From Candidatus Kerfeldbacteria bacterium (GTDB taxonomy: Bacteria; Patescibacteriota; Patescibacteriia; UBA9570; XYC2-FULL-38-9), in the NCBI GenBank assembly GCA_016182555.1, contig JACPGJ010000007.1:192053-256052 (forward strand): DNA of 64,000 nucleotides. The letters are read 5' to 3'. Positions 24,337-40,778 of this stretch are shown here, one piece after another. The translations under genes and the position numbers were made by a program. The number at the start of each line of letters is the position of its first letter. The first letter of the stretch is position 1. Below the pieces are notes generated by a model. It did not search any database. It had not been told where the DNA came from and worked only from the letters and a program-made list of their open reading frames with translations.

Positions 24337-24412
24337 GGTGGCCATGGTGAAACGGTTATCACGACAGTTTGTGGTACTGTCATTACGGGTTCAATTCCCG
24401 TTGGCCACCCCA
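24337..24412 (+). tRNA. tRNA-His (anticodon GTG) with encoded G-1 and CCA
   Basis: G-1 is opposite discriminator C73. Perfect acceptor GTGGCCA/TGGCCAC, D arm GTGA/TCAC, anticodon stem ACAGT/ACTGT with loop TTGTGGT, T arm ACGGG-TTCAATT-CCCGT. Confidence 0.9.
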
Positions 24413-24684
24413 AGCGGAATGATTATGTGCGATGAAGATGGAATCGAAAGGTTTTTGCAAGGAATACTGCACCTTTTGACCATCAAATGACAAGTTCTGA
24501 AATACCAATTTGATAATTTCTCTTTTTTGGTCTAGTTCAGAACCGATAAACAATTCTTTACTACGGGAAGCGATGTTTAGTATTGCTATAGCGTCGATAT
24601 AGTAACTTTCATCGGCTTTTTGTAGTTGCTCTAGCTTACTACGGTATTCGGTCTGCTTGGCAGTATTCGGTCTGCTTGGCACGA
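24407..24684. repeat. direct repeat copy 1 (278 bp), starting in the last 6 nt of tRNA-His; has a 19-nt internal tandem duplication
   Basis: Aligns with 40779-41037. The right ~150 nt look identical by eye; the left ~110 nt are about 85% identical. It encodes a minus-strand ORF fragment (...ELFIGSELDQKREIIKLVFQNLSFDGQKVQYSLQKPFDSIF...) nearly identical to the fragment in copy 2. Confidence 0.85.
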
Positions 24685-25216
24685 AACTGACTGCTTAATT
24701 TGTCGTACTGCTCCTGAGTAATCCACATGGCTTATCAAAACTGATAAATCAGTGACGGGTGTTCGAGATGAACTACAATCAGTTGTCGACAAAAACGACG
24801 CATTATACGTAGTTGACGTCACAAGTGAACCTTCAGCGTGGGTTGGTCTCGATAGCAATGTGAGCGCTTGGATTAAAAACAATTCCTAAGTTCAAATCGG
24901 GGGAAGGTTTCAAACCTTCCCCCACTCCAAGCACAACAATCATAAATATATAGCAAAAAGCATTCATTCAACGCCTTATGACGGAAAGTGGGCCGTCAAG
25001 CAAGCAAATAAAGCAAAACCACTATCAACTCATCGTACACAAGCTGCTGCAATTGCAGCTGGACGTGCAGAAACGAAACGACAACACGCTGAACATGTTA
25101 TACATGGTCGAAATGGTCAAATACGTAAGAAAAATAGCTATGGAAATGATCCTAAAAGAATAAAAGGCTAGGTAGAAAATTCATGGTTTAGGTAGTCCGT
25201 CACAACACTGCCTTTT

Positions 25217-25957
25217 TTATTTTACTTCTATCGTTTGCGCTCCCAACCAAGAAAGATAATATGCCTGCCGCATAGCATCTGCAATTGCTTTACTTTCAAT
25301 AATAACTGACATATTTTCAGCATAGTTCATGAAGGCCACTTTATTGTTATAGATATTTACTTCAATCTCTGGCCAAAACACATTACGAGGAACAATGAGT
25401 GTTTCCGCCAATTCTGATTGATCATACTTCTTATGTTTTGTATGCCACACTGATCCACTCCCAGCAATGCGCTTAGCATGTATGTTTAACTTCATGCGTT
25501 CCGAAATATAAGCGTGGTCTTTTGGAAATTGGTCAAAATAGGCATTCGTATTCCATTCTAAGATTTCATCTGGCCGCTCCCGCAAGGTATCATCATACAC
25601 ATTCTGAATCGCATGTTTTCCTTCATAAAAAACTATTTTCGGTTTGGTTTCACTTTTGTTATAGATCGCTTCTAACTCAGGAAGTGCGTGAGCAATTTTT
25701 TTCTGTAGCTCTGTAGCGAAGGATAGAAGTTTACTTGGGGATTCAGCAATATAGCGATATTTACCACGTACTTTAGATTTACCAACGATACCTTTTTTCA
25801 CCAACATCTCTAATATCGAATATGTGGTTGTACGTTGTAAATTGGCCTTTTTTGCAATATCTTGAGCAGAAGATAAGCCCATTTCTAAACTGGCAATATA
25901 GACTTTGGCTTCATTCTGAGAGAAACCCAACTGTTTAAGTAATGGTTCAAATTTCAT
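25217..25957 (-). CDS. TrmB-like transcriptional regulator (winged HTH plus C-terminal TrmB-type domain), island paralog 1
   Basis: N-terminal LKQLGFSQNEAKVYIASLEMGLSSAQDIAKKANLQRTTTYSILEMLVKKGIV matches the TrmB HTH. C-terminal block KPKIVFYEG...NIYNNKVAFMNY...IIESKAIADAM is shared with all paralogs. Start set at MKFEPLL. Confidence 0.7.
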   Translation of the reverse strand: MKFEPLLKQLGFSQNEAKVYIASLEMGLSSAQDIAKKANLQRTTTYSILEMLVKKGIVGKSKVRGKYRYIAESPSKLLSFATELQKKIAHALPELEAIYNKSETKPKIVFYEGKHAIQNVYDDTLRERPDEILEWNTNAYFDQFPKDHAYISERMKLNIHAKRIAGSGSVWHTKHKKYDQSELAETLIVPRNVFWPEIEVNIYNNKVAFMNYAENMSVIIESKAIADAMRQAYYLSWLGAQTIEVK

Positions 25958-26147
25958 ATTGTAAATTGATAAAATGACGAAACACATTTAGTCATTTTAA
26001 TACTATATAATACTTAATTTATAGTCAAATTTAGATATTTATTTGTTATTTTCGTCATTTTTGACGAAAAATTTATACATTATTTTTTCTATTATATACT
26101 TGTACGTTCCTCGGAATGAATTTGAGGAACAAGGAGGTAAATCAAAA

Positions 26148-26402
26148 ATGAAAAAGCACCTTTTATTCCTTCTGTTGTTGGTGCTCACTGCCTGTCCTAC
26201 CAAAACTTCTGATTTCAATAGGAGCAAGGAGGTAAAACCACCCACAACAGCAGGAGAATCAAGTCAATGGGTGAGGGAGCTATCCTATTCGTCTGCTCCG
26301 CTCATTGGCGATGCCTCTCGTTTAAAAACAGATACCAATAAATGCTACCTCGTAGTGAGAGGTGGACATGGAATCGCACTTGTAGAGACGCCTTGTCCTT
26401 AA
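26148..26402 (+). CDS. small lipoprotein (cargo gene of module 1)
   Basis: GGAGG RBS 8 nt upstream. MKKHLLFLLLLVLTAC lipobox signal peptide. Confidence 0.55.
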   Translation: MKKHLLFLLLLVLTACPTKTSDFNRSKEVKPPTTAGESSQWVRELSYSSAPLIGDASRLKTDTNKCYLVVRGGHGIALVETPCP

Positions 26403-26411
26403 TTAAAGGAA

Positions 26412-26480
26412 AACGGTTCGGCAGTACCAGCTGCGTCGAGAGCTTGGAGGAGCTTTCCGCACAAAACTGCTATTTTTTAT
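26412..26480 (+). repeat. conserved ~70-nt palindromic terminator-like element, copy 1
   Basis: AACGGTTCGGCAGTACCAGCTGCGTCGAGAGCTTGGAGGAGCTTTCCGCACAAAACTGCTATTTTTTATTT. A long imperfect hairpin (GGCAGT...ACTGCY) followed by a T-run, directly 3' of the + gene. Confidence 0.8.
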
Positions 26481-27280
26481 TTCAAATCTTTTTGAGTAAT
26501 TTCTTCTGAAACACTATCCCACATCATTTCAAACCACGCAAGGAATGTTCTATAAATAGTTGGGTTGTCAATCACCACAGTATTCAGATGTTGCGTGTAA
26601 TCAATAATAGCTACATGCCCTTCCCAAATGAGGGTATCAGTGTCCAGCTTCATATTTTCTGGCAACCATTTCACATGATGATATTCATGCAAACCCGCAT
26701 TTCGAAGATACTGCTTCCCCGCAGCATTGGGAATCATCATTCCTTTACGTAATACTTTCTGTATTTTTAACTCAGCAAAATTATCTTCAACAGCGGCATG
26801 CGGAAATGTTTTCGTCACTACTGCTAAATCACCAATTAAGTAAAGTGTTTTTTGTGCGTTGATAATTTCCCGATGCACTGCCAGAATTCCTTTTTTGCCT
26901 TCGAAAAAACGCACACCTGCTTTGTAGGCTGTACCAAATTTCATTTGATTAAACACATCCGCAACAGAACGAAATGCATTTTGTTGTTCCGTGAGTGCTC
27001 GTTTCTCTTCTTCCAAAATATCAATGACATGTTCAATCTGCTCTACTTGAAAATAGAGTTTATCATTTTCTGTAATTGAACTCACAAATCCTCGATGTTG
27101 TAATGATTGCAACAAATCATAAATTGATGAACGTGGAATATCACTTGCCTGTTTTGTTATTTCAGATGCTGTAGCTTTATTGAGCTGAATCAATACAAAC
27201 AGCACGGCAATCTCCCGTTGATCAAGCCCATACGCTTCAAGAATACGTTGTATTTCTTTTTGTCGAATATCCGTCGACAT
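26477..27280 (-). CDS. TrmB-like transcriptional regulator, island paralog 2
   Basis: HTH LDQREIAVLFVLIQLNKATASEITKQASDIPRSSIYDLLQSLQHRGFV. C-terminal block conserved with the paralogs. Confidence 0.7.
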   Translation of the reverse strand: MSTDIRQKEIQRILEAYGLDQREIAVLFVLIQLNKATASEITKQASDIPRSSIYDLLQSLQHRGFVSSITENDKLYFQVEQIEHVIDILEEEKRALTEQQNAFRSVADVFNQMKFGTAYKAGVRFFEGKKGILAVHREIINAQKTLYLIGDLAVVTKTFPHAAVEDNFAELKIQKVLRKGMMIPNAAGKQYLRNAGLHEYHHVKWLPENMKLDTDTLIWEGHVAIIDYTQHLNTVVIDNPTIYRTFLAWFEMMWDSVSEEITQKDLK

Positions 27281-27377
27281 ATATATTGATTATTATTTAA
27301 ATTCATTTTATATTTATTTGTTCTTTTTGTCAAAATAGTGCGACAAAAAGAATAGACTTTAACTCATGAGGTTTGTT

Positions 27378-28001
27378 ATGCGGATTTTGGTAATCGACGA
27401 TAACCAACATCATCTCAACTCAGCTAAAGAATTGTTAAAAGAGCACAAAGTCACTCTCTGTTCTACTGCAGACGAAGCAATTGAACTGCTTGAACCGCAG
27501 TATGATGATGTCATCTTTCATCGGCTTTGGTCAGAGAAAGGATGGGAAGAAGCTTCACAAGTGGCTCGCCTTCCCTACTGGGATGTAGTGCTCAGTGATC
27601 TCCTCATGCCTGCCCCAAAACGAAACCTGAGTTACTTTGGTGAAAAATTCATTGGGCAGGAGATGCCAGTAGGTTGGGCATTCGTGTTACGAGCTACACT
27701 CGAGGGTGCAAAATTTGCAGCCGTTGTGACAGCAACAAACCATCACAACCATCCAGCCTCAGCACTGCTCGATCCTCTTGGATCGGCATATTGGGAAGAT
27801 AATAGGGAAAATGCACCGAAGTTTACAATTAACGGTGCCACAGTTGGTTTCTATCATGCACCAATGATAGGTGTAGACACCGTTCCCTGTTCACACTGTA
27901 ATGTAACAGGGCGCACAGATAAAATCTGTTCTTTTTGTGAGGGCACAAAAAAGGAACAAGGAAAAAATTGGGCTCTGGTGCTTAAGGCGCTAACCTCTTG
28001 A
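27378..28001 (+). CDS. receiver-like domain protein with C-terminal DnaJ-type CxxCxGxG zinc finger (cargo, family member 1)
   Basis: MRILVIDDN...DVVLSDLLMP receiver-like N-terminus. Conserved HHNHPAS motif. C-terminal CSHCNVTG...CSFCEGTK. GAGG RBS before the second ATG. Confidence 0.6.
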   Translation: MRILVIDDNQHHLNSAKELLKEHKVTLCSTADEAIELLEPQYDDVIFHRLWSEKGWEEASQVARLPYWDVVLSDLLMPAPKRNLSYFGEKFIGQEMPVGWAFVLRATLEGAKFAAVVTATNHHNHPASALLDPLGSAYWEDNRENAPKFTINGATVGFYHAPMIGVDTVPCSHCNVTGRTDKICSFCEGTKKEQGKNWALVLKALTS

Positions 28002-28011
28002 AAAATATACA

Positions 28012-28080
28012 AACGGTTTGGCAGTACCTGCTGCGTTGAGAGCTTGGGAGAAGCTTTCCGCACAAAACTGTCTTTTTTAT
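28012..28080 (+). repeat. conserved ~70-nt palindromic terminator-like element, copy 2
   Basis: AAACGGTTTGGCAGTACCTGCTGCGTTGAGAGCTTGGGAGAAGCTTTCCGCACAAAACTGTCTTTTTTATTT. Confidence 0.8.
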
Positions 28081-28835
28081 TTCTCCCACATGTTCTTGAA
28101 CAACTCCCGCAAATTTCGTGCAAGAACAGCATCATGAATTTCCACCATATAATGCGGACGATCACGTGTTTTTACCATAATAATATAATCACCAATTACC
28201 CACAGACTCGCATCAAATTCACCTTTTCGTGTTGGTTTAACTAAGCGTTGCACATACTTCTCTCGCATAGCTCGCTCAATGTTTTTGTCGTTCGTTAAAA
28301 AACGGACTTTCAAATCTTTTGGCCCTTGCTGCCAAGTCCAGTCTATCCATCGGCCATAGTGCTCGGTAAATGAACTATCATGAAACCCCCACCATGTATT
28401 ATCTATTGCTTCTCCGCTCTCTTTCCAATGTTCATATTGTTTATGCAAATAGGTCGTCAGATCAGATTCTTCAATAACCTTGATTTTTGGTACTGAATAT
28501 TCTACCGCAGACATGATTGTTGTAATATTGCGGGAGAGAATTTGAGCTGCCTCTTTTTTCTTTTTGATTTGCTGCTCTTCTTTTGTTACCAAATCCAGTA
28601 ATGCTTTTGGATTACCCGCTACCAGATAGCGCACTTTGTTCCCAATATCTTCAGTAATCAAACCAAGTTGAATAAGCTTTTTCCCAATACTATACACCGT
28701 TGTTCTATTGATTCCCGTGAGCTTGGCCACCCGTGCTGGCGATATTTTTCCTGTCTGTTGCACAGCCAAAAAAACAGCTTGTTCTTGCTCATTAAAACCT
28801 AATGTACTAAAGAGTTCTTTTTCCATATATGGCAT
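28077..28835 (-). CDS. TrmB-like transcriptional regulator, island paralog 3
   Basis: HTH LGFNEQEQAVFLAVQQTGKISPARVAKLTGINRTTVYSIGKKLIQLGLI. C-terminal block conserved. Confidence 0.7.
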   Translation of the reverse strand: MPYMEKELFSTLGFNEQEQAVFLAVQQTGKISPARVAKLTGINRTTVYSIGKKLIQLGLITEDIGNKVRYLVAGNPKALLDLVTKEEQQIKKKKEAAQILSRNITTIMSAVEYSVPKIKVIEESDLTTYLHKQYEHWKESGEAIDNTWWGFHDSSFTEHYGRWIDWTWQQGPKDLKVRFLTNDKNIERAMREKYVQRLVKPTRKGEFDASLWVIGDYIIMVKTRDRPHYMVEIHDAVLARNLRELFKNMWEK

Positions 28836-29002
28836 ATTGCTACAAAATTAACATGTTGTTGGTATATCGTCAACGAATTTTATATTATTAGCTAAAATTA
28901 GCATAGAATAATGATTTATTATCTTTGACACTATAGCTTCTTTATTTTACGCTGTATAGTTCTGTTCTGGATAGCAAGCTTGAAAACTGTATGGGAGGAG
29001 AT

Positions 29003-29392
29003 ATGAAAATTGGTATTCTGACGTGCAATCACAATTGGTGGAGCAGTGATACCGCTAGCCTATTAAGCGGAATGCTGCCCTATTTAGCACCTCGAGAATT
29101 AGGAGGAGTTGAGAGCTATATTGAACTTCCTTGGAATGAAGTAATTCCAAAAGACGTCGATCTTGTCTTTTGTACTCTGTGCGAAACCTGCACAGAAGAG
29201 CCAGAGAATCTCAAAGCTCTAAAGCAACGAGGAGGGTATATAGCTATTTTTCATGAGTACAACGATTTACGTGCTCAGGTGATAGTAGAGCTGCATGACT
29301 ATCACACCTTCCGCATGCTGAAAGAAAAGTATGGTGTTACTAATCTCGAATTCCTTTATAGCGAATGGAGATTTTTAACAGCCAGAAAATAA
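29003..29392 (+). CDS. hypothetical protein (cargo of module 3)
   Basis: GGGAGGAG RBS before MKIGILTCNHNWW. No recognizable domain. Confidence 0.4.
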   Translation: MKIGILTCNHNWWSSDTASLLSGMLPYLAPRELGGVESYIELPWNEVIPKDVDLVFCTLCETCTEEPENLKALKQRGGYIAIFHEYNDLRAQVIVELHDYHTFRMLKEKYGVTNLEFLYSEWRFLTARK

Positions 29393-29423
29393 GGAGGAAT
29401 AATGTTCTATATCCGAGCAGGAC

Positions 29424-29470
29424 CAACGGTTTGGCAGCACCGATCAAAAGCTGCCTTTTTGTTTATTTTT
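29424..29470 (+). repeat. short variant of the conserved element (same 5' box CAACGGTTTGGCAG, simple hairpin plus T-run)
   Basis: CAACGGTTTGGCAGCACCGATCAAAAGCTGCCTTTTTGTTTATTTTTT. Confidence 0.65.
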
Positions 29471-30224
29471 TAAGTGTTTTCCAAAGAAGCGTATATATCA
29501 ACTTCTGCAATTGGACAAACTCCCGTGATTCTATCAGGACAGCCATTTTTTCTTTCCATGAAGCAATGAGCACTTTATCATTATAGATATTCACTTCTGG
29601 CGAGAATGTATGCTCTGGATCATCTAAAATAACCGATTCACGAAGTTCTGATTTATCATGCTTTGCGCGTTCAACTGATTTTTTATTTTTTGGCATAATA
29701 GCCCGAATTGATACCTTTGCTGCTGTACGACGCTTGTAATAGTCTGGGAAAAAATGTGGTAGTCCCTCGTGCATAGTTTCCACATTGGCATAGGCTAAAA
29801 TCGTTTCTTTAGCAGTAAGTGTATCTTCATATGCTTCTCGCATTCCTTTTTCTCCTTCATAAAATGTTACTTTTGGTTTTGTACTTTGCGGATGAATCAA
29901 CGAGGAAAGTTCTGGCAGAATTTGTTTTACCAGCTCCTGTTGCGTATTGATTTGCTTATTCATTTCCTCCCTTTCTCGTTCCAGATACTGAACTAAACGT
30001 TTAGGATCACCCGCATGAAAATAGATTTTCCCTTTCTTTTTGAATTTACTAATGAGTCCTTTCTTCATCAGACCTTCTAACACATCATAACAACTCGTAC
30101 GGTTAATATTCGACTTTTTACTAATATCGGTAGGAGTCGCTGAATCCAGCTCTAATAACGCTAAATAGACTGCTGTTTCTTTATCAGAGAACCCTAATTG
30201 CTCAAAAATGGTTGTGGATATCAT
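29463..30224 (-). CDS. TrmB-like transcriptional regulator, island paralog 4
   Basis: HTH LGFSDKETAVYLALLELDSATPTDISKKSNINRTSCYDVLEGLMKKGLI. C-terminal KPKVTFYEG...NIYNDKVLIASW...LIESREFVQL. Confidence 0.7.
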   Translation of the reverse strand: MISTTIFEQLGFSDKETAVYLALLELDSATPTDISKKSNINRTSCYDVLEGLMKKGLISKFKKKGKIYFHAGDPKRLVQYLEREREEMNKQINTQQELVKQILPELSSLIHPQSTKPKVTFYEGEKGMREAYEDTLTAKETILAYANVETMHEGLPHFFPDYYKRRTAAKVSIRAIMPKNKKSVERAKHDKSELRESVILDDPEHTFSPEVNIYNDKVLIASWKEKMAVLIESREFVQLQKLIYTLLWKTLKK

Positions 30225-30360
30225 ATATTTTGTGGAAAATATTTCGACAATATTAGTATATCAAATAAAGGATAAAATAGCAATATTTTTATACTTTGTC
30301 GGTTATAGTGTGTAAGTATTTTTTATTCTATGAGATACTACTGTGTTCTCGAAAGAGAGC

Positions 30361-30906
30361 ATGCACATTGAAACCATATCCATTCAGTTAAGGCACGGCT
30401 TCGCGATGTTGCGGAGTGGTCGTGAGCTACACTGGCTGAATGGGTATTACAAAAAACGTTGGGGTAGTATGCGGCCAACAGTAGCGCTTGAGTTTAATGG
30501 TACCAACAAGTGGGTGGGGACATTTAGTTGGCATCATAGTTTAGATAAGGTTGAAGCGAGTTTTAAAGTGGTTGTGACAGACTGGGGCAGTGAGTCTACC
30601 TGTTATAGTTTTGAGATAGGGTCTCAAAAGTGGGACTTATCACCTAAAGAACTGTGGCAGTATGGCAATGTTGGTAAGGATGATTATCAACAAGCACAGC
30701 AGAGGATGCTATACTTGATGTATAGTCAAACCAGGACTGCACTTCAGGCAGCAACATCTATGCCTGATTTTGACCTACAAGACCAGATCAAAAGAGGAGA
30801 TGCTAACCTGGAGGTGTTTAACAACAAAGTTTCCCTGAGGATGTTTGATAACGTTTGGGAAAGTGCGGTGCATTATACTATTCGTAAGCTGTATATCCCC
30901 TCCTAG
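30361..30906 (+). CDS. hypothetical protein (cargo of module 4), possibly frameshifted into 30845-31120
   Basis: No domain recognized. A second overlapping ORF (30845-31120) ends exactly at the downstream terminator hairpin. Confidence 0.3.
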   Translation: MHIETISIQLRHGFAMLRSGRELHWLNGYYKKRWGSMRPTVALEFNGTNKWVGTFSWHHSLDKVEASFKVVVTDWGSESTCYSFEIGSQKWDLSPKELWQYGNVGKDDYQQAQQRMLYLMYSQTRTALQAATSMPDFDLQDQIKRGDANLEVFNNKVSLRMFDNVWESAVHYTIRKLYIPS

Positions 30907-31130
30907 AAATTCGTGCCGCCTGTCACGTTCCCTCCTACAGGCATATCCCAGTGCCTACCTTTTAAAAGATGGATACTGGAATATCTATAGTGCTAAAGCT
31001 GGTTCTACTATCAACTGCTTTATCAAATTCATATTCACCTTCCAGTCAGTTTGGAGGTTCCTGAATACGTCCACTAAGGGACCCATGATGGGAAGAAGCG
31101 AGGCGAAAGCCTCGTTTTGATTTGTATTTA

Positions 31131-31167
31131 GAGAAGCTTTGCAAACAAAACTGCTTTTTTGTTATTT
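31131..31167 (+). repeat. partial copy (3' half) of the conserved element, preceded by an independent hairpin at 31100-31119
   Basis: GAGAAGCTTTGCAAACAAAACTGCTTTTTTGTTATTT matches the 3' half AGCTTTCCGCACAAAACTGC-Tn. Confidence 0.55.
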
Positions 31168-31906
31168 ACACATTCCATGCTACATAAAACAAACTTTTTA
31201 ACATTTCATGTATTCCTTTGCTTTCAATAATCACTCCAAAAAAATCTTCTTGGTATGAGAGAAAAGCTACTTTATGTGCAAATATTTTCACATCTCCGCT
31301 ATATAATGCGTGTTGATTTTTGATAATTTTGATTTCTCTGAGTTCATTTTTTGCAGAACTTGCCCACTCACCTGCTGTCTGATCATCATGTGTAATAATT
31401 TTGTTGACCACTTTTTTCCGTATACGTTCTTTAACATATTTGTCGAGGATTTCTTTTGGAATGTATTCATAAAAATTTTGCACTCCGATATACGTCAGAA
31501 TAGTATCGCCTGGAGAAACGGATGCAATAATATCATGATAAAACTTTTTCATCCCTATTGCTCCTTCATATAACAGAATGTTTGGTTTTGAACGTAAAAA
31601 ATTTTGATATTTTGCTAACTCTGGAATCATCTGGCGTACCGCTTCTATTTTTTCTTCTATCGCTTGCTCAAGATTACGAACATCATCAACAAAGTAATAT
31701 TTTCTCCCCTTCTGCTTTGTCACCGAAATAAATCCATTTCGCTGCATCTCAGGCAGAATATTATATAACGTTGTTCTTTTCAGATTACAGCGCTTTGCTA
31801 AATCAGTTGCCGTTATTTCTCCTGCCTCTAACAACGTGAGGTAAATGAGCGCTTCTTTATCAGAGAAACCCATATTCTCTATTAAGTGTTGCTTCTGTAC
31901 TCGCAT
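31166..31906 (-). CDS. TrmB-like transcriptional regulator, island paralog 5
   Basis: HTH MGFSDKEALIYLTLLEAGEITATDLAKRCNLKRTTLYNILPEMQRNGFI. C-terminal KPNILLYEG...VKIFAHKVAFLSY...IIESKGIHEM. Confidence 0.7.
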   Translation of the reverse strand: MRVQKQHLIENMGFSDKEALIYLTLLEAGEITATDLAKRCNLKRTTLYNILPEMQRNGFISVTKQKGRKYYFVDDVRNLEQAIEEKIEAVRQMIPELAKYQNFLRSKPNILLYEGAIGMKKFYHDIIASVSPGDTILTYIGVQNFYEYIPKEILDKYVKERIRKKVVNKIITHDDQTAGEWASSAKNELREIKIIKNQHALYSGDVKIFAHKVAFLSYQEDFFGVIIESKGIHEMLKSLFYVAWNV

Positions 31907-32099
31907 ATATTTATACTGTGTCTACATTTTTAGACAATATTCTAGTTACTATTTTTTACAAAAAATGCCTTAATTTACAGCCATAATAGTTATTCTTTCC
32001 ACTAGCATAATATAGAATAACAAAAAAATCAAACGCTATTTTTATTTTCATATAACGTGTAAATCGGCAATCACGCCTAGCCCATATCTGGAGGACATC

Positions 32100-32324
32100 A
32101 TGGACGGTCTGCTTTGGCTTATTGCTAATTTATTCCAAGCTCATCAGAAGGTTTCGGAAAGAACCGCGCGCATTGCTTCACTAGAAACTGCTTTATTGAC
32201 TGCTTCATCTGACGAAGAGAAAGAAGCAATCACAAAGCGAATTAATGAAATTCGTGCCGAGACCATGCACCTGGATGCTGGTCGCAAAGCAGTGCTCAGA
32301 GCAAATGGAAACCCTGAGAAGTGA
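32100..32324 (+). CDS. small coiled-coil protein (cargo of module 5)
   Basis: 74-aa helical ORF correctly placed between the divergent promoter and a copy of the element. Confidence 0.35.
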   Translation: MDGLLWLIANLFQAHQKVSERTARIASLETALLTASSDEEKEAITKRINEIRAETMHLDAGRKAVLRANGNPEK

Positions 32325-32366
32325 TTACCTGCTGAGGTACTTGCGTTCAATGTACCTAGACAGTAT

Positions 32367-32438
32367 CAATGGTTTGGCAGTACCAGTTGCGTTGAGAGCT
32401 TGGAGGAGCTTTCCGCACAAAACTGCCTTTTTTTATTT
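32367..32438 (+). repeat. conserved ~70-nt palindromic terminator-like element, copy 5
   Basis: CAATGGTTTGGCAGTACCAGTTGCGTTGAGAGCTTGGAGGAGCTTTCCGCACAAAACTGCCTTTTTTTATTT. Confidence 0.8.
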
Positions 32439-33225
32439 ACTGCCACCCACCTTCAACAGGTTTGGCAAAATGATGAATAGACTCAAACAGCGCACGTAGA
32501 ATGCCAACAATACCCGCATGCTCCAACGTAAAAAGTAGTTTAACTTCTGGAATAAAAAACGCAGCTTTGTTTCCATATATCATCACAAGGTGCTCAAGTG
32601 GCAATGCGGCTTCTGGCAATGTGCGTAAATCCCACAAGCGTGCTCGCATCAAGCGTTTATTTTCTTCGGCAAGGCCTTTTCCTGGCAGAGCCATAGATTC
32701 TGTGGTGAACACTGCACGCGTTAAAATGCGCCTGTCCACCATGCGTCCGAAAAATACCGCCCACTCTTTACTGGAGAGCAATTTCAATTCTCCCTTCACA
32801 GCTGTTTTTCCTTCCAGCACAAGAAATTCAGACCCCCGTGGCATTGTACTCATTTCGTCGTAAATACGTTTCATGCCAGCCGCTGATTCAATAACCTCAA
32901 TAAGCGGCTTTTGTGTTTCAGCGCGTTGCAACGATTCCAATTCGGGCACAACGGATTTAAAATCAACCGTCCAGCGTTCAAACAAATCGGCTAAATCTTT
33001 TGGCGGTAGAGCAACATATTCCGTTCTGCGCCCAACTCGTGTTTCCTTCACCAGCCCGCGTTCAATCAAATGGGTGAGATGGAAAGAAACTGCGGCTCTA
33101 TTTTTCTTTTGTGCATACGCTAATTCTGTAATTTTGCTTGAACCCTGCTTTAACAACAGTACATACAACTCTGCCTGTTGTGGCGTAAGAGAGAAGTTTT
33201 CGAGCAGTTCGATGGGTTTTGCCAT
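32437..33225 (-). CDS. TrmB-like transcriptional regulator, island paralog 6
   Basis: HTH FSLTPQQAELYVLLLKQGSSKITELAYAQKKNRAAVSFHLTHLIERGLV. More divergent C-terminal domain. Confidence 0.6.
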   Translation of the reverse strand: MAKPIELLENFSLTPQQAELYVLLLKQGSSKITELAYAQKKNRAAVSFHLTHLIERGLVKETRVGRRTEYVALPPKDLADLFERWTVDFKSVVPELESLQRAETQKPLIEVIESAAGMKRIYDEMSTMPRGSEFLVLEGKTAVKGELKLLSSKEWAVFFGRMVDRRILTRAVFTTESMALPGKGLAEENKRLMRARLWDLRTLPEAALPLEHLVMIYGNKAAFFIPEVKLLFTLEHAGIVGILRALFESIHHFAKPVEGGWQ

Positions 33226-33413
33226 ATATTTTTCTATAAATGTCTACGATTATTTACATCCAATTATACGCTATTTTATTAGTATAGTCAAACATTTTGT
33301 ATGTTTAACGTCTATAACCGTTGACGTTGAGCGGTTTTTCAGGTATTCTGTTCTGTTGATTGAGAATAGTTCTCATGAAACACGCACCTTTACAACCGAT
33401 AAAGGAAAAGATC

Positions 33414-34031
33414 ATGAAAGTTTTAGTAATCGACGACAACGAAATCAACCGAAAATCTGCGCGGGATACTCTTGAGGGGCACGACCTCACGATCGCTGAT
33501 TCAATGAGTGCTGGTGGACTTGCAATGTTCCACGCGAAAAAAAATTTGCCATTCGAAGCGGTTCTGACGGATATGAATATGCCGAGGGAGGAGGAGGGAG
33601 AGCTTGCCGCGTATGGATTCATCATTGCTCTGATGGCAGTGCAATACGGGGCAAAGTACATTGCCATGGTTACAAGGAAAGGCGGCCACGATGATAAGAA
33701 AGATGCAATGGCGGAAGCTCTTTCCTCTCTTGGTCCGTGGCACTACACAAACAAACAGCGTTTAAATATTAACGGAGCAAGGGTTATGTTTGTGTACGCA
33801 CCTACAACCAGTGAAGCGACTGGAGAGGGGTCGTGTCCTTCCTGCAGTGGCTCTGGAACCTGCAAGTATTGCGATGGCACGGGAATTTTTGTGGATGAGG
33901 ACAGGAGGCAGGACAACTGCCATGTGTGTCACAATAGTCAAGGCGGTTGCCACCGTTGCAAAGGAGAAGGCAAGGTGAAAATATATGGGAAGGACTGGGG
34001 TAGGGTTCTGTCCGACCTTATTGCTCCATAA
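33414..34031 (+). CDS. receiver-like domain protein with a fourfold DnaJ-type CxxCxGxG zinc finger (cargo, family member 2)
   Basis: AAAGGAAAAG RBS. MKVLVIDDNEINR...AVLTDMNMP receiver-like region. C-terminal CPSCSGSGTCKYCDGTG...CHVCHNSQGGCHRCKGEG. Confidence 0.6.
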   Translation: MKVLVIDDNEINRKSARDTLEGHDLTIADSMSAGGLAMFHAKKNLPFEAVLTDMNMPREEEGELAAYGFIIALMAVQYGAKYIAMVTRKGGHDDKKDAMAEALSSLGPWHYTNKQRLNINGARVMFVYAPTTSEATGEGSCPSCSGSGTCKYCDGTGIFVDEDRRQDNCHVCHNSQGGCHRCKGEGKVKIYGKDWGRVLSDLIAP

Positions 34032-34045
34032 GTAAAAAGGAGAAC

Positions 34046-34120
34046 CAACGGTTTGGCAGTATCCGTGCGTCGAGAGTTGTAGCACACAACTTTCCGCATA
34101 AAAACTGCCTCTTTTATTTT
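34046..34120 (+). repeat. conserved palindromic element, copy 6 (divergent stem sequence, same boxes)
   Basis: CAACGGTTTGGCAGTATCCGTGCGTCGAGAGTTGTAGCACACAACTTTCCGCATAAAAACTGCCTCTTTTATTTT. Confidence 0.7.
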
Positions 34121-34878
34121 CTCGCACTATTCCAAGCTAATTTCCAAATCATTTTCATGGTATTAGCAATGAGTTGGCTTTCAATGGTGACTGCAAACAC
34201 TTCATGGGTGTGATATGAAATCATAGACACAACATTGTCATAGCACATAATTTCACATTCAAAATTGTAGGTTGATGCTGGGAGTAATCGCGATTCACGA
34301 AATTCTTGTTTATCTCTACTATGAAAATCTACTGCTAATTCATCATCAGGAATCACAAGCTTGGCTAGTTTATTATTTTTTTTACGAGCAGGAATATACT
34401 CTTTCTGCCAAAAATGAATCAATGCTTTATCACGTACTTGTAATGATTCTATTCCTACAAATGCTTTCAGTTCATTTTCTTTCGCATTCAGTGAAGCACG
34501 ATATACCTCTTTTACTCCTTCAATTCCTTCATAATATTTCAACACTGGTTTTATCGCATCATGATTCATTCGTGTGACTAACTCTGGGAGCAGTGTATCA
34601 AACTGCTTCAATTTTTCTTTGAAGAGCTGCTTGAGCGTTGAAGGATGTTCCGCAACATACACTGTCTGCTTTCCTTTTTTTGATTGCGTGACAAATCGTT
34701 TTTCAATGAGATTATCGATCGTGTGATAGAGAGTTGTACGATTGATTTTTGTTTTACTGGAAAGCTGTAAAATAGACGATGAGCCAAGTTCAAGCAAGGC
34801 AAGATACAGTGCCGCTTCTTTATCTGTTAATCCATATTGTTGCAATGCTTCTTGAATCATGTTGACTATTTTCGACAA
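34114..34878 (-). CDS. TrmB-like transcriptional regulator, island paralog 7
   Basis: HTH YGLTDKEAALYLALLELGSSSILQLSSKTKINRTTLYHTIDNLIEKRFV. C-terminal block conserved. Confidence 0.7.
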   Translation of the reverse strand: MSKIVNMIQEALQQYGLTDKEAALYLALLELGSSSILQLSSKTKINRTTLYHTIDNLIEKRFVTQSKKGKQTVYVAEHPSTLKQLFKEKLKQFDTLLPELVTRMNHDAIKPVLKYYEGIEGVKEVYRASLNAKENELKAFVGIESLQVRDKALIHFWQKEYIPARKKNNKLAKLVIPDDELAVDFHSRDKQEFRESRLLPASTYNFECEIMCYDNVVSMISYHTHEVFAVTIESQLIANTMKMIWKLAWNSARK

Positions 34879-35032
34879 ATATTAAAACTAAATTTAAGCT
34901 AATATAAATAACTTTATCCATAAATAAGAGTAAAATATATTATATCTTGTTTATAAAAATAGTCAAATATTTGTATGAATGGTAGTGTTGTTTGTTCCTC
35001 AATAACGAGGGGCACAACAGGAAGGATCTTTT

Positions 35033-35488
35033 ATGCTTAGGCTTGTCGAAATGTTCAAAATTGAAGTTGATTCCACTATCAATTTTGAACGGGCACATTT
35101 TTTTCACAATCAAAAAGCGTTTCTTCAGTGCCTACCAGACGTGGAGAAAAGATTTCCACTCAACGACGACCGGGGAAAGGTGGAAATATTCATCTATGAG
35201 GTAACGGCTGAAGAGATGACGAATGATCAACTCAACGAGGAATTGTTTCGAAACCACTGGCGGATGGCTGGAAGCAGAATCGGCCTTTCGCTTATGTCTG
35301 ATCAACAGATCAGATGGCGAATGCGAGAAAAATACCCCACGGTATTTTTTACTGAAACATGGCATGACGGAAATGTGCCAAGACGGCTCGCTTTTTGTGA
35401 AGGGATGCATAAGTTTGGCACCATGCTGGGAATAATCCCAATGGCGCCAATCAGCAAAGGAGACAAATTTCTTGTTGTAAAGGTGTAG
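35033..35488 (+). CDS. hypothetical protein (cargo of module 7)
   Basis: 151-aa ORF followed immediately by a copy of the element. No recognizable domain. Confidence 0.4.
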   Translation: MLRLVEMFKIEVDSTINFERAHFFHNQKAFLQCLPDVEKRFPLNDDRGKVEIFIYEVTAEEMTNDQLNEELFRNHWRMAGSRIGLSLMSDQQIRWRMREKYPTVFFTETWHDGNVPRRLAFCEGMHKFGTMLGIIPMAPISKGDKFLVVKV

Positions 35489-35494
35489 GATCAT

Positions 35495-35562
35495 CAATTT
35501 AGCAGTACCTGTTACGTTGAAAGCTTGGAGGAGCTTTCTGCAACGGTACTGCTTTTTTTATT
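35495..35562 (+). repeat. conserved palindromic element, copy 7 (compensatory changes keep the long stem)
   Basis: CAATTTAGCAGTACCTGTTACGTTGAAAGCTTGGAGGAGCTTTCTGCAACGGTACTGCTTTTTTTATTA. Confidence 0.75.
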
Positions 35563-35743
35563 ACTTAAAAAATAGTAATAGCTTATAATTGCTCCTAATT
35601 TAGGTTGAACTATACATTAAAAGTTTGGTTCATAAAACACATTCATCGATTCAACTCTTGATTTTCTCGCTTCAAAAAAAACAGGCTCGTCAGATATAAT
35701 ATCCTCGGAGCCTTTATTGGATCGGCTATTTGAGCATATCCGA

Positions 35744-36193
35744 TCATACGTATGCGCGTAACAGAATTCCAACTTCCTTCTCTATCTTTTCCTTGAAAGT
35801 AGTATCAAGGTGAAGGTACTGTTGCCGACAAGCTCGTATCGTACCCTTGATATCACCAAGTACGTACACTGTAATCGTTTCATCTGTGGGAGGAGCACAA
35901 CCAATAAGGGAAGATACTCTGCTCAGATTTTCGATACCAATTTCAATTTGGTTTTGAGCACAGATACCAAATATACTGATGATAAGCTCGATAGCCTTAC
36001 GAAATGACTTGGGCTTATGATGATGGTGAGCCAAAAAGGCTGCATCAACCAAGTTTTCCCACTGCACAATAGTAGGAGGATGTTTGTCATATTTCTTTGC
36101 ATGCTCATCAACCATGTGAATAAGCTCTCGCAAAGTGGTCTCTGGATCGATCCCTTTGAAACTCAGTAGCTCTTGGTCGATATTCAGGCTCAT
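35744..36193 (-). CDS. hypothetical protein (partner of the plus-strand TrmB paralog 8)
   Basis: 149-aa ORF divergent from 36369-37133. No domain recognized. Confidence 0.4.
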   Translation of the reverse strand: MSLNIDQELLSFKGIDPETTLRELIHMVDEHAKKYDKHPPTIVQWENLVDAAFLAHHHHKPKSFRKAIELIISIFGICAQNQIEIGIENLSRVSSLIGCAPPTDETITVYVLGDIKGTIRACRQQYLHLDTTFKEKIEKEVGILLRAYV

Positions 36194-36368
36194 CTTTCTC
36201 TCCTTCTAACTACGTTACACTGTTTGATTACTCAAGGCACATGCTTATCCTTCCATTTTTCTATATGTATTTAAATATACTAAAAATATATTTTGCCTAT
36301 ACTTAGTGTAAAAATTGACATAATTAAATTCTGTTGACAAAAATAATGACAGTAGATAGTGTAATAAT

Positions 36369-37133
36369 ATGTCTATAGAAAAAATGTTAGAACAATTGGG
36401 ATTAGAGCAAAAGCAAGCACTCGTCTACCTTACATGCCTCCAACTTGGTAAAGATAGTGCGTTTCATATTGCTGAAAAATGTGGCCTGAAACGTTCAACC
36501 GTATACATCAAACTAAATGAACTCAATATAAAAGGATTAGTACAGATTACAAAAACATCAAAGGCAAAATTGTATCAGGCTGTTTCTCCAAAACGATTAT
36601 TACAACAAATAGACTTTAGAAAAAAACAGATTGAAGAATCACTCCCCCTGTTGCTTTCTCTGTATAAAGATGAGAGTCAAAAACCGAATATTGAAATATT
36701 TGAAGGGAAAAATGCACTTGAGCAGATGAATAAAGAAATATTCCATTATATCCAGCAGAATCCCACCGAAGAAATCCTTTCGTTTGGAAGAATTGATTAT
36801 CTTGAACGTTATTATGAAAAAACATTTAGCAAATGGGTAAAGCAAGTACAATACAAACAATTTCGAACTCGCCAGATATTTAATAAAGGTGCTACTGAAA
36901 CAGCTCTTGTTAAAACATTACAAAAAAATGCTTCCGCTCAACACGATGTACGATTTGTTGATGAAGAATTATTTTCCAATGACAATGTTATTTGTGGAGA
37001 TACCATGTATATTTTCTCTATTGTAGAAAATAACCTATTTGTAATTGTGATCCATAATCAAGAAATTATACAGACCTATAAAGCTTTCTTTGATTTAGCG
37101 TGGAAAGGTATTAAAAAAACCCCACTCTCCTAA
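36369..37133 (+). CDS. TrmB-like transcriptional regulator, island paralog 8 (inverted orientation)
   Basis: HTH LGLEQKQALVYLTCLQLGKDSAFHIAEKCGLKRSTVYIKLNELNIKGLV. C-terminal KPNIEIFEG...FVIVIHNQEI. Confidence 0.65.
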   Translation: MSIEKMLEQLGLEQKQALVYLTCLQLGKDSAFHIAEKCGLKRSTVYIKLNELNIKGLVQITKTSKAKLYQAVSPKRLLQQIDFRKKQIEESLPLLLSLYKDESQKPNIEIFEGKNALEQMNKEIFHYIQQNPTEEILSFGRIDYLERYYEKTFSKWVKQVQYKQFRTRQIFNKGATETALVKTLQKNASAQHDVRFVDEELFSNDNVICGDTMYIFSIVENNLFVIVIHNQEIIQTYKAFFDLAWKGIKKTPLS

Positions 37134-37180
37134 AAGGAATAGCTATGTATATCGTCTTAACTTGGGTAAAACCAAAATTT

Positions 37181-37954
37181 TTACTTTACTTTATTCGGTA
37201 ATGCATTCCAGACAAGGTTAAATAACGACGTCATTGAATCTGCTAACGCACTATCTTGAATAATAATGCCTGTCGGATGTTGGGTATTCCAGCTAATCAA
37301 GGCAATTTTATTTTTATAGACGTCAATTTCAATTTTGAAGGGATACTTCTGCGCATTAAATAATTTCATCGTGCGATACTCTTCTTTCTTTTTTGCGTAC
37401 TGTTTAGAAATCGCATTATCTGGAGCAATCCAGCGAATAGGAATGTGCTCTTTCATGCGTTTTGCAATAAATTGCTTTTCATGATGAGGAAGAATAGCCA
37501 GCATATCTTCTCCTGAGGAGATAGTAAGAATTTCTTTATCTGGATTTTTATCGAGCTTCATCGTTAGTAAAATATCACGAAATATATTTTCTACTCCCTC
37601 TTTTCCCTCAAAGAATTGCATACGCGTTTGTTGATCACCTGTCATAGCCATATTGAGTAATGGCAGAATTTGACGAAGATCAGTGAGTAAATCTTCAAAT
37701 CGAAATACAATAGACTCTGGTGATTCGGCAGTATACACTTTTCGCTTGCCTTCCAGATGATGAGTAATGAATCCTTTTTTTTCTAACTGCTCTACCAAAA
37801 TATTGACCGTACTGCGCTTTATTTTCGTACTCTCAGTAATTTGAGAAATGAATAAACCGTACTTGCTTTGAAGCAATGCAAAATAGATGCTCACTTCAAC
37901 ATCTTTTAGGCCTAATTGTCGTAATAATGAAGCAACGTCAGGAATGAGTACCAT
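37181..37954 (-). CDS. TrmB-like transcriptional regulator, island paralog 9
   Basis: HTH LGLKDVEVSIYFALLQSKYGLFISQITESTKIKRSTVNILVEQLEKKGFI. C-terminal KIEIDVYKNKIALISW...IIQDSALADSM. Confidence 0.7.
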   Translation of the reverse strand: MVLIPDVASLLRQLGLKDVEVSIYFALLQSKYGLFISQITESTKIKRSTVNILVEQLEKKGFITHHLEGKRKVYTAESPESIVFRFEDLLTDLRQILPLLNMAMTGDQQTRMQFFEGKEGVENIFRDILLTMKLDKNPDKEILTISSGEDMLAILPHHEKQFIAKRMKEHIPIRWIAPDNAISKQYAKKKEEYRTMKLFNAQKYPFKIEIDVYKNKIALISWNTQHPTGIIIQDSALADSMTSLFNLVWNALPNKVK

Positions 37955-38058
37955 AGAAATTTAACAAAAAAATTAACATTTTGATACTATTTTAACAATA
38001 ATCTATTATTTTGTCTAGCACCTTGAAAACAATCTTAGCAAAAGAAAAGGAGGACACT

Positions 38059-38457
38059 ATGAATATCAAGCATGTTCTTGTTCTTGAGGATGATAAGGAC
38101 TTAATCGATCTCTACAAGAAATCTCTATGGGAAATGCTCCTTTCCGATAGTATTGTTCCTACTATGGCCTGTACCGTACATTCAGCCATATCTTGTGCCC
38201 AAGTGAGGGTCGATGTTGAACAACCATTTCATCTTGCCATTCTTGATTATTCCATTCGGAATGATCCGCAGAATGGAAACGATGCCGCCAGAATCATCAA
38301 GGAAATATCACCTACAACACGCATTGTTGGTAATACGGGTGGTAACCCACTGGTTTTCGATCGACGCTTCGTTGATAAGGTGATGCGAAAAAAAATCCGC
38401 AACTGGATGGAAATGATGCTTGCTATCGATGACCATAACCTTGGAGGAATACCATGA
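38059..38457 (+). CDS. receiver-like single-domain protein (cargo of module 9, first gene)
   Basis: GGAGG RBS. MNIKHVLVLEDDKDLIDLYKK...LAILDYSIR. Translationally coupled (ATGA overlap) to the next gene. Confidence 0.5.
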   Translation: MNIKHVLVLEDDKDLIDLYKKSLWEMLLSDSIVPTMACTVHSAISCAQVRVDVEQPFHLAILDYSIRNDPQNGNDAARIIKEISPTTRIVGNTGGNPLVFDRRFVDKVMRKKIRNWMEMMLAIDDHNLGGIP

Positions 38458-38999
38458 AGATTTTGATTATGGATGACAATCCACTTCACCGTGCTGCTGC
38501 ACAAGCTCAATTGAATGATCATGAGCTGACTGTAGTGAGTACATACGACGATGCTCAGGCATTGATTGGGAAAAAGCACGACTTCGATGTTGTGCTTGTC
38601 GACCTGCTCATGCCACCAAGCAAAAAAAATCTCAATTCCCAAGGAAAGAGGTTCACAAGAAAGGAGATGCCAGTTGGGATCTTTCTGGCATTGTTGGCCG
38701 CACGATTCGGTGCCAAGTATGTTGCCGTGGTGACAGATGCTGGACATCATGACCATCCAGCCTCAACCTGTTTCGATGCATTCAACCCTTTTGATCGGCA
38801 CAACGTGCATAATCCAAATGCACCACAACCGTTCAAGCTCAATGATGCAAAGGTCATTCTGTGCAACAACTGCATCGACTACTTCTACGGTGATGATCTC
38901 TCTCGGCAAATGGCATATGGCCAGTACAACACTGAAAAGGGAAAAGTTATTGCGGTAAAAAACTGGCGTTTGGTTCTGGAGGCACTTTTGCAAAGTTGA
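38454..38999 (+). CDS. receiver-like domain protein of the HHDHPAS family with a C-terminal CxxC (family member 3)
   Basis: MKILIMDDNPLHR...DVVLVDLLMPPSKKNL...GHHDHPAS...CNNC. Clear homology to 27378-28001 across the receiver-like region. Confidence 0.6.
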   Translation: MKILIMDDNPLHRAAAQAQLNDHELTVVSTYDDAQALIGKKHDFDVVLVDLLMPPSKKNLNSQGKRFTRKEMPVGIFLALLAARFGAKYVAVVTDAGHHDHPASTCFDAFNPFDRHNVHNPNAPQPFKLNDAKVILCNNCIDYFYGDDLSRQMAYGQYNTEKGKVIAVKNWRLVLEALLQS

Positions 39000-39011
39000 A
39001 TAAGCAGGATG

Positions 39012-39082
39012 CTTGGTTTGGCAGTACCAGTTGCGTTGAGAGCTAGAGGAAGCTTTCCGCACAAAACTGCTTTTTTTATTTT
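39012..39082 (+). repeat. conserved ~70-nt palindromic terminator-like element, copy 8
   Basis: CTTGGTTTGGCAGTACCAGTTGCGTTGAGAGCTAGAGGAAGCTTTCCGCACAAAACTGCTTTTTTTATTTT. Confidence 0.8.
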
Positions 39083-40623: not shown

Positions 40624-40778
40624 AAAATCTTTTCTATTTGGCTGCAGTATACAAAAATAACCCCTTCTCCACAAGGGTAAGAAATAGTGAGCTGGAGGGT
40701 GGACTACTATATATCAAGTGATAGGCCGTATAAGTTATTCGCTTGCTGTAATCCAGTTCTAACTTCGTCTACTATGCG

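Follow-up and report, generated by a model that had tools for sequence, protein, structure and literature searches.

A putative genomic island of Candidatus Kerfeldbacteria with nine TrmB-family regulator-gene pairs between direct repeats

A 64,000-nt stretch of a Candidatus Kerfeldbacteria (Patescibacteria) metagenome-assembled genome (MAG), referred to here as the window, contains an island of ~16 kb in which nine pairs of a TrmB-family regulator gene and a neighbouring gene lie between direct repeats. The array of pairs, from R1 to C9b, spans positions 25217-38999, with eight regulators on the minus strand and R8 alone on the plus strand. Each regulator (R1 to R9) is divergent from a different gene, termed cargo (C1 to C9b), and most modules are followed by a shared hairpin/T-run element (E0 to E9). 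Coordinates are collected in Table 1. The explanation favoured here, to which a probability of roughly 55% is assigned, sees in the array a genomic island that carries nine regulator-target pairs, each independent of the others and insulated from them by terminators.

The nine regulators and their divergent partners

All nine regulators passed the Pfam TrmB model (PF01978), with scores of 32.9-65.3 bits against a gathering score of 25.6, and the proteins (246-267 aa) could be aligned end to end with loosely conserved C-terminal blocks. These results bear out an earlier interpretation made from the DNA letters alone (the sequence-only reading), which had described nine open reading frames (ORFs) with a TrmB-type winged helix-turn-helix (wHTH) and common C-terminal blocks. 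No further TrmB-like ORF was found in the other 50 kb of the window. The suggestion that the C-terminal domain could be verified against TrmB-family models was answered in part: the C-terminal half of the regulators had no match in Pfam, the Pfam TrmB C-terminal model included, and a match to TrmBL2 was obtained both by profile and by fold. A family profile built from R4, R4 orthologues and the eight other paralogs covered residues 5-253 of ~263 in the TrmBL2 chains 5BOX and 5BPD (E = 1.6e-10), and only the wHTH and helix (residues 3-100, E = 2.7e-12) in TrmB 3QPH. The AlphaFold2 (AF2) model of R4, with a mean predicted local distance difference test score (pLDDT) of 92.2, has a helix at residues 76-108 followed by an alpha/beta domain. 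The top eight Foldseek matches of this model in the PDB were TrmBL2 (E down to 4e-14), after which came Zucchini, PLD3 and F13, proteins of the phospholipase D (PLD) fold, for the C-terminal domain.

The conserved alignment columns of the regulators contain neither the His nor the Lys of the HKD motif. An HxK(x)4D string in R1 was considered as an HKD motif and rejected as a chance occurrence, since it is not conserved in the other paralogs. Scores against the NCBIfam TrmB and TrmBL1 equivalogs were 20-43 bits, compared to cut-offs of 600-650. Because profile and fold match TrmBL2, the HKD motif is absent and the equivalog scores fall far below cut-off, the regulators are TrmB-family proteins of TrmBL2 architecture, in which a wHTH and a long coiled-coil helix precede a PLD-like domain that has no catalytic HKD residues. 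They are not of the sugar-sensing TrmB/TrmBL1 type: the sugar-binding subdomain is absent from these proteins of 246-267 aa, and Pfam gave no match beyond the wHTH.

Within the array the regulators are 16-35% identical pairwise. Their best relatives outside the array are 55% (R1), 47% (R2), 41% (R3), 82% (R4), 41% (R5), 40% (R6), 62% (R7), 44% (R8) and 41% (R9) identical; the closest relative of R7 sits on a 1-kb contig. Relatives of R4 with 54-82% identity were found in at least 170 species genomes, among them Uhrbacteria, Magasanikbacteria, Falkowbacteria, Moranbacteria, Peregrinibacteria, Campbellbacteria and others. Because each regulator is closer to an outside relative (40-82%) than to any other in the array (at most 35%), the nine represent nine old subfamilies, assembled or retained from pre-existing pairs, with no recent duplication. 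The same figures contradict the proposal that a single unit had been iterated into a diversifying cassette system.

The whole family is very large: after clustering at 50% identity, the representatives of 22,809 clusters matched at E<=1e-3, and those of 4,651 clusters at E<=1e-30. Several members are considerably longer than the array regulators: P0241 (1061 aa), P0243 (787 aa), P0251 (664 aa) and P0247 (510 aa) carry one TrmB wHTH followed by two to seven tandem PLD-like domains of ~135 aa. On account of such tandem copies, the PLD-like C-terminal domain is a modular, repeatable unit.

The divergent arrangement of each regulator with a different gene was confirmed, with AT-rich spacers of 85-193 nt (GC 0.19-0.31). 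In 88 loci from other Patescibacteria genomes, a divergent upstream neighbour was present for 90 of 110 TrmB-like genes and for 484 of 1,368 other genes (35%; odds ratio 8.2, p = 1.6e-21), and the median spacer of the divergent TrmB-like pairs was 188 nt. The divergent partners there fell into 63 clusters out of 100 sequences and included radical SAM enzymes (21/90), periplasmic binding proteins (8/90), PEP-utilising enzymes, proteins similar to the RNA polymerase alpha C-terminal domain (CTD), receiver-like proteins described below and many unknowns; radical SAM enzymes were the commonest partner of R4 orthologues. Throughout the family in Patescibacteria, the regulator is habitually divergent from a neighbour that varies from locus to locus. 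The unit is not peculiar to the array, and the neighbours elsewhere include ordinary enzymes and binding proteins.

Two to six TrmB-like genes were found within +/-10 kb in 19 of 80 R4-centred loci, and the nine TrmB-like genes in 14 kb form the densest cluster among the loci examined. The density of the array and its shared terminator are unusual; the pairing of regulator and neighbour is ordinary for the family. A second R4 copy, 74% identical, is present in the same MAG (L006, 5034-8680), where an AbiEi-like/AbiEii pair lies between this copy and a divergent radical-SAM-like gene of ~434 aa.

GC content alternates along the array, from 0.33-0.39 in regulator genes (0.26-0.36 at third codon positions) to 0.41-0.49 in cargo genes, with 0.44-0.47 in housekeeping genes. 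The GC-richest module is R6/C6 (0.455 and 0.494), R6 being the exception among the AT-rich regulators.

The hairpin/T-run element

The shared element is ~73 nt long and consists of a hairpin followed by a T-run. A covariance model (CM) made from six full-length copies and searched against the window recovered eight copies, all within the array, on the plus strand and in direct orientation. No other intergenic repeat family was found in the window, where the element pattern has 5 matches compared to 0.00 expected by chance. Copies lie directly 3' of a plus-strand gene and touch the stop codon of the next minus-strand regulator. The earlier statement that every module is closed by a ~70-nt element required correction: a shared structured element does exist, in six full copies, with two further copies in a short form, one represented by its 3' half only and none at the R8/R9 junction or after C8.

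A two-tier hairpin is predicted for all eight copies, with T5-T7 immediately after it on the cargo strand. In the alignment 98.3% of cells are paired and four pairs are changed on both sides, values reached by 0 of 500 shuffles. Because the hairpin is followed by a T-run on the cargo strand and by no U-tract on the opposite strand, the element has the appearance of an intrinsic terminator that acts in one direction, on the cargo transcripts.

Copies of the element are 68-95% identical, compared to 16-35% for the proteins of the regulators that they separate. Two more TrmB paralogs are present on a second contig of the MAG, but no copy of the element was found there; nothing significant was returned by a CM search of 1.3 Mb of other Patescibacteria loci, and the exact pattern was absent from GTDB species genomes and JGI metagenomes. 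Rfam gave no match at the gathering threshold or at E<=1. By inspection, no paired RYYYAAC/GTTRRRY (R''/R') boxes are present at the ends of the element.

A comparable situation was encountered on contig L094 of the candidate phyla radiation (CPR), which carries two tandem modules of a minus-strand TrmB-like gene and a plus-strand receiver-like gene. The regulators of these modules are 20% identical and their cargo 35%, the cargo promoter blocks (1723-1770 and 3524-3571) are 75% identical, and structured elements 3' of the cargo (2377-2421 and 4696-4740) are 96% identical over 45 nt, with no T-run after them. An array from Moranbacteria (L046) has a five-copy hairpin family at convergent junctions, including 5269-5347, 7711-7747, 9254-9290 and 12466-12502. 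Near-identical hairpin terminators were also observed at convergent junctions of L035, a locus with several TrmB-like genes (1650-1698, 6348-6396 and 8479-8527). The near-identity of a terminator between anciently diverged genes is odd, and the discordance recurs in L094. It may be accounted for most simply by gene conversion between direct repeats that lie close together; recombination-mediated cassette capture would be the more novel account.

Cargo genes and surroundings of the array

R4 is 100% identical to an NCBI protein encoded on a 293-kb contig of the source MAG, where the annotation of the cargo genes is that of hypothetical proteins (HYV32_03490 to HYV32_03555). C1 carries a signal peptide of the lipoprotein type, as the sequence-only reading had noted, and C3, C4, C7 and C8 have no detectable relationship to one another, as it had also stated; no relatives of these four were detected in Pfam, PADLOC or PHROGs either. 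No homologue of C7 was found among 5.8 billion clusters. Scanning of viral contigs with the regulator profile and with the profile of the receiver-like cargo gave no matches.

The island lies beside a tRNA-His gene. Its 259-nt direct repeats start in the 3' end of this tRNA and recur 16.4 kb further on, the array is enclosed between the two copies, and no intact integrase is found inside. A 19-nt tandem duplication (GTATTCGGTCTGCTTGGCA) is present on the inner edge of the left repeat copy (24644-24684). The idea that the ORF remnant in the 259-nt repeat is a recombinase C-terminus was dropped, as Pfam gave no match. Next to the right copy, the AEP-TOTE primase ORF ends just past an RPYQ helicase-like motif at the start of the repeat, so that the gene is truncated. 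Further along, an apparent frameshift divides an AbiEii toxin gene between overlapping ORFs at 42155-42851 (-) and 42808-43587 (-), and an AbiEi antitoxin gene adjoins it. Other nearby genes encode an AAA_14/DUF4143 ATPase, an HNH protein and a Xer-type tyrosine recombinase. The last of these, at 19857-20828, is the sole tyrosine recombinase in the window and scores 232 bits against XerD and 137 bits against the integron integrase model (cut-off 265). The region is variable, island-like and rich in defence and mobile genes.

No decayed remnants of TrmB-like genes or of receiver-like cargo were found in the larger gaps of the array. To the left of R1, a 61-aa ORF at 24978-25163 (+) has the short element E0 directly 3' of it, with no regulator remnant detected beside it; this ORF may be the leftover cargo of a lost tenth module. 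Elsewhere in the window, a 46-nt repeat occurs in five copies (58609-59722) within an ORF of 654 aa at 57907-59871 (-) that has FG-GAP repeats and a MopE-type metal-binding motif. This repeat family is part of a repeat protein and is no non-coding element.

Table 1 Features of the island and its borders, in positions of the window.
Feature	Position	Strand	Evidence and remarks
tRNA-His(GTG)	24338..24412	+	ARAGORN, Rfam; 3'-terminal bases are the start of the left 259-nt direct repeat
Direct repeat, left copy, 259 nt	24404..24662	.	Alignment; 3' remnant of an ORF
E0, short form (outer stem only)	25181..25223	+	CM 24.3 bits, E = 7e-4; abuts R1 stop codon
R1, TrmB-family regulator, 256 aa	25217-25987	-	PF01978 56.8 bits
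C1, predicted lipoprotein, 84 aa	26148..26402	+	Sequence; lipobox LTAC, signal peptide MKKHLLFLLLLVLTAC; no family match
E1, full	26410..26482	+	CM 92.2 bits; fold
R2, TrmB-family regulator, 267 aa	26477-27280	-	PF01978 53.3 bits
C2, receiver-like with zinc-ribbon insertion (REC-Zn), 211 aa	27366..28001	+	Alignments; AF2 pLDDT 93.7; weak receiver fold matches
E2, full	28010..28083	+	CM 91.2 bits
R3, TrmB-family regulator, 252 aa	28077-28835	-	PF01978 32.9 bits
C3, hypothetical, 133 aa, HYV32_03490	28991..29392	+	ORF
E3, short form (outer stem only)	29423..29466	+	CM 34.5 bits; fold; compensatory GGCAGC/GCTGCC change and T-run
R4, TrmB-family regulator, 253 aa	29463-30224	-	PF01978; AF2 model pLDDT 92.2
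C4, hypothetical, ORF 187 aa (Logan product 145 aa)	30343..30906	+	ORF
Unrelated separate hairpin terminator 3' of C4	31095..31118	+	Fold
E4, 3' half only, after C4	31128..31160	+	Repeat-family search (family D4)
R5, TrmB-family regulator, 246 aa	31166-31906	-	PF01978 51.6 bits
C5, helical peptide, 74 aa, HYV32_03510	32100..32324	+	ORF
E5, full	32366..32438	+	CM 98.9 bits
R6, TrmB-family regulator, 262 aa	32437-33225	-	PF01978; GC 0.455
C6, REC-Zn protein, four CxxCxGxG motifs	33417..34031	+	Alignments
E6, full, inner stem rewritten by compensatory changes	34045..34120	+	CM; fold; pairing test
R7, TrmB-family regulator, 254 aa	34114-34878	-	PF01978 48.7 bits
C7, orphan, 151 aa	35033..35488	+	Homologue search
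E7, full, outer stem extended	35491..35564	+	CM; fold
C8, hypothetical, 149 aa; R8 partner, sole inverted module	35744..36193	-	ORF
R8, TrmB-family regulator, 254 aa	36369-37133	+	PF01978 47.6 bits
R9, TrmB-family regulator, 257 aa	37181-37954	-	PF01978 43.2 bits
C9a, short receiver-like protein	38056..38457	+	Response_reg E = 0.051, weak
C9b, REC-Zn member, 181 aa, degenerate zinc finger	38454..38999	+	Response_reg 30.8 bits, cut-off 30.2
E9, full	39010..39082	+	CM 92.3 bits
SLFN/AlbA_2 + HATPase_c_4 domain protein	39196..40674	-	Last gene within the repeat-bounded island
Direct repeat, right copy, 259 nt	40776..41034	.	95% identical to left copy; fused to truncated AEP-TOTE primase ORF
Truncated AEP-TOTE primase ORF	41003-42145	-	PF22548, E = 9e-86

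Such surroundings invite a reading of the pairs as conflict modules similar to toxin-antitoxin or defence systems: the small variable gene would encode an effector, and the TrmB-like protein would serve as repressor or antidote. The island is set among AEP-TOTE primase, AbiEi/AbiEii, SLFN/AlbA_2, AAA_14/DUF4143 and HNH genes; R4 orthologues elsewhere adjoin AbiEii, Fic, HEPN/NTase and AAA_14/DUF4143 genes, homologues of the receiver-like cargo were found near SMEK/CTD12/MC6, DUF2326 and Fic genes and in a prophage-like region, and the cargo genes are small and variable, some of them orphans. Against this, searches of Pfam, PADLOC and PHROGs gave no significant match of any cargo gene to a described toxin or defence family, and the toxin-antitoxin-like modules put forward previously are not supported by this result. 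The regulators match PADLOC weakly and through the generic wHTH alone, the commonest partners family-wide are radical SAM enzymes and solute-binding proteins, and in the Kerfeldbacteria loci (L006, L007 and L008) the two AbiE genes seem to have been inserted between regulator and radical-SAM-like partner, with no functional link to them. Conflict modules are considered unlikely on this balance.

Three of the cargo proteins, C2, C6 and C9b, are mutually homologous (33-42% identical), in agreement with the earlier description of three receiver-like proteins. They belong to a family, designated REC-Zn, with 357 detectable relatives, nearly all in Patescibacteria. Comparison with the REC-Zn profile by hhalign showed no relationship for C3, C4, C7, C8 or C9a, which had been tried as further kin. 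In 44 REC-Zn sequences the residues D11, D12, D78, T122 and K200 are invariant or nearly so, and in the AF2 model (pLDDT 93.7) they are located at strand ends. The model matches receiver domains weakly (E = 2.6e-4, TM-score 0.35), and among C2, C6 and C9b the Pfam Response_reg cut-off is passed by C9b alone (30.8 vs 30.2). From alignment and model, the three proteins are predicted to share the flavodoxin-like fold of receiver domains, with an acidic pocket, Thr and Lys. Their CxxC motifs form an insertion preceding the final strand, with a weak profile match to the DnaJ A3 zinc finger 2CTT (E = 0.17). Of the DnaJ-type zinc fingers ascribed to all three, clear CxxCxGxG repeats are present in C6 alone, which has four; C2 has two CxxC motifs and C9b has one.

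REC-Zn genes are also found elsewhere as divergent partners of TrmB-like genes (L029, L090, L094 twice, L095, L096 and L114), and in L090 and L094 the regulator paired with REC-Zn is of the R6 subfamily. The partner could thus be pictured as a co-regulator, with REC-Zn receiving a phosphoryl group or another signal and modulating the adjacent TrmB-like factor as a two-protein signalling unit. The near-invariant receiver pocket makes phosphorylation plausible, REC-Zn proteins have no DNA-binding output domain, their genes recur beside TrmB-like genes of several subfamilies, and histidine kinases are encoded 11-17 kb away. Most partners, in the array and family-wide, are nevertheless not receiver-like, and many REC-Zn genes have no TrmB neighbour, which leaves this arrangement quite unlikely as an account of the array.

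The genes in question encode proteins with a HisKA_7TM sensor region at 49700-51988 (-), where a kinase ATPase domain is also present, and at 54312-56096 (-). The HisKA_7TM proteins are possible signalling partners of the receiver-like cargo. An ORF between the two (52073-52702, -) is weakly similar to acyl-homoserine-lactone synthases (E = 4e-11, far under the cut-off).

Proposed local control, competing accounts and known systems

On the favoured explanation of nine local regulator-target pairs, each regulator would bind the spacer that it shares with its divergent neighbour and would thereby control, most likely repress, both the neighbour gene and its own promoter. Release would follow from a signal sensed by the C-terminal domain or from an oligomeric change in it. 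The hairpin and T-run would end the plus-strand cargo transcript before it ran antisense into the next, convergent regulator, so that nine switches would be insulated from one another on an island assembled or retained from pre-existing old pairs. The presence of radical SAM enzymes and periplasmic binding proteins among the neighbours fits targets of local regulators, and good -35/-10 matches were identified in the spacers of R1, R2, R6, R7, R8 and R9.

Several results weigh against this explanation. Promoter-like sites are not enriched over shuffled sequence (61 vs 51.6 +/- 8.9). No operator was found in the spacers, where inverted repeats largely correspond to the -35-like hexamers, and comparison of three R6-type spacers revealed nothing beyond the cargo promoter. 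A TrmB neighbour was present for REC-Zn homologues in 0 of 3 contexts and in only ~4 of 14 metagenome loci with enough flank. Insulation alone does not account for the near-identity of the terminators. In addition, reports on TrmBL2 (PMC3031468, PMC4877046) describe a chromatin protein of low specificity that is a global repressor, so that homology does not guarantee specific local control.

The conservation of the element is the principal attraction of a cassette-capture platform, in which recombination would take place at the hairpin, as it does at attC or dif modules, and regulator-cargo cassettes would be inserted, excised or shuffled. The element is far more conserved than the genes that it separates and is confined to the array, with approximately one copy per module in a single orientation; its conserved 5' flank (AACGGTTTGG) reaches past the stem, and E4 retains the 3' half alone, as though broken in the loop. 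Direct repeats of 259 nt enclose the whole island next to a tRNA gene, the same discordance of element and genes is seen in L094, and old paralogs fit accretion. These points are met by the absence of an intact dedicated recombinase, the sole tyrosine recombinase of the window scoring as Xer, by the absence of paired R''/R' boxes and by the promoters that every module has of its own. Copies of the element were found neither in 1.3 Mb of other CPR loci nor, as exact pattern, in the two large collections, and gene order is fixed and identical in two independent Logan assemblies (L001 and L118), for which reason phase variation, another earlier suggestion, is not indicated either. Since similar locus-wide terminator families occur in other CPR loci, gene conversion or a common terminator origin may suffice, and a capture platform is judged very unlikely. 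A specific form of it, in which self-contained cassettes accrete in Patescibacteria much as in integrons, with the hairpin as capture or exchange site and a recombinase other than the integron one (for example Xer-type or supplied in trans), would account for the near-identity of the element amid ancient genes here and in L094, and is regarded as a long shot.

Least probable of all is that the regulators are nucleoid-associated or silencing proteins that coat AT-rich acquired DNA without acting as specific switches, as their closest solved relative, the chromatin protein TrmBL2 (PMC3031468), and the AT-rich regulator genes and spacers might suggest, because nine highly diverged paralogs with differing recognition-helix residues would be unexpected for a generic coat and consistent divergent pairing points to local, specific control.

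Local control by nine regulators can be set beside several known systems. In archaea, TrmBL2 (TK0471 of Thermococcus kodakarensis, PF0496 of Pyrococcus furiosus; PDB 5BOX, 5BPD, 5BPI and 5BQT) is described as a chromatin protein with a global repressor role, and its conservation extends to some bacteria (PMC3031468; see PMC4877046, PMC4158304). It resembles the array regulators in its size of ~250-265 aa, in its three-part architecture and as the full-length profile match and best fold match. It differs in sequence (~20% identity) and in being archaeal where the array regulators are bacterial (Patescibacteria), and it is a single abundant protein (PMC3031468, PMC4877046), unlike the many diverged paralogs per genome found here, each with a different divergent gene. 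TrmB and TrmBL1 of Thermococcales (3QPH; reviewed in PMC4158304) share the N-terminal wHTH and dimerisation helix, and they are local regulators of adjacent operons, as is proposed for the array regulators. The latter are shorter (~250 vs ~340 aa), have no C-terminal sugar-binding barrel and are not partnered with sugar transporters.

Divergent pairs of the MarR, IclR and LysR types likewise place a wHTH regulator and the gene under its control on a short bidirectional promoter region, but belong to other families with other effector domains. Integron cassette arrays and Xer-dependent dif modules are similar in their tandem, heterogeneous small genes, each with a conserved imperfect hairpin of ~70 nt, near a tyrosine recombinase gene. 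In contrast, the array has neither an integron integrase beside it nor attC sites with R''/R' boxes, its modules consist of two genes with their own promoters, and mobility was not seen. To our knowledge, no arrangement of nine regulator-target pairs placed head to tail with one shared terminator sequence has been described. A full-text literature search for TrmB with Patescibacteria or "candidate phyla radiation" found no paper.

Local regulators of the TrmB family are known; what is new here is a dense array of them with a shared terminator. If the island is only a cluster of ordinary regulators, its value is mainly descriptive, and the discordance between terminator and genes calls for an explanation, be it by concerted evolution or by the capture of cassettes. 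Knowledge of gene regulation is scant for Patescibacteria, whose genomes are small. The results suggest that the TrmBL2-like family is a major family of local regulators in this radiation, with thousands of subfamilies. Most members would have a target gene divergent from them, and some carry sensor-like domains in several tandem copies. The island with its nine pairs would offer a compact set of regulator-promoter-terminator units in which operators and ligands may be assigned.

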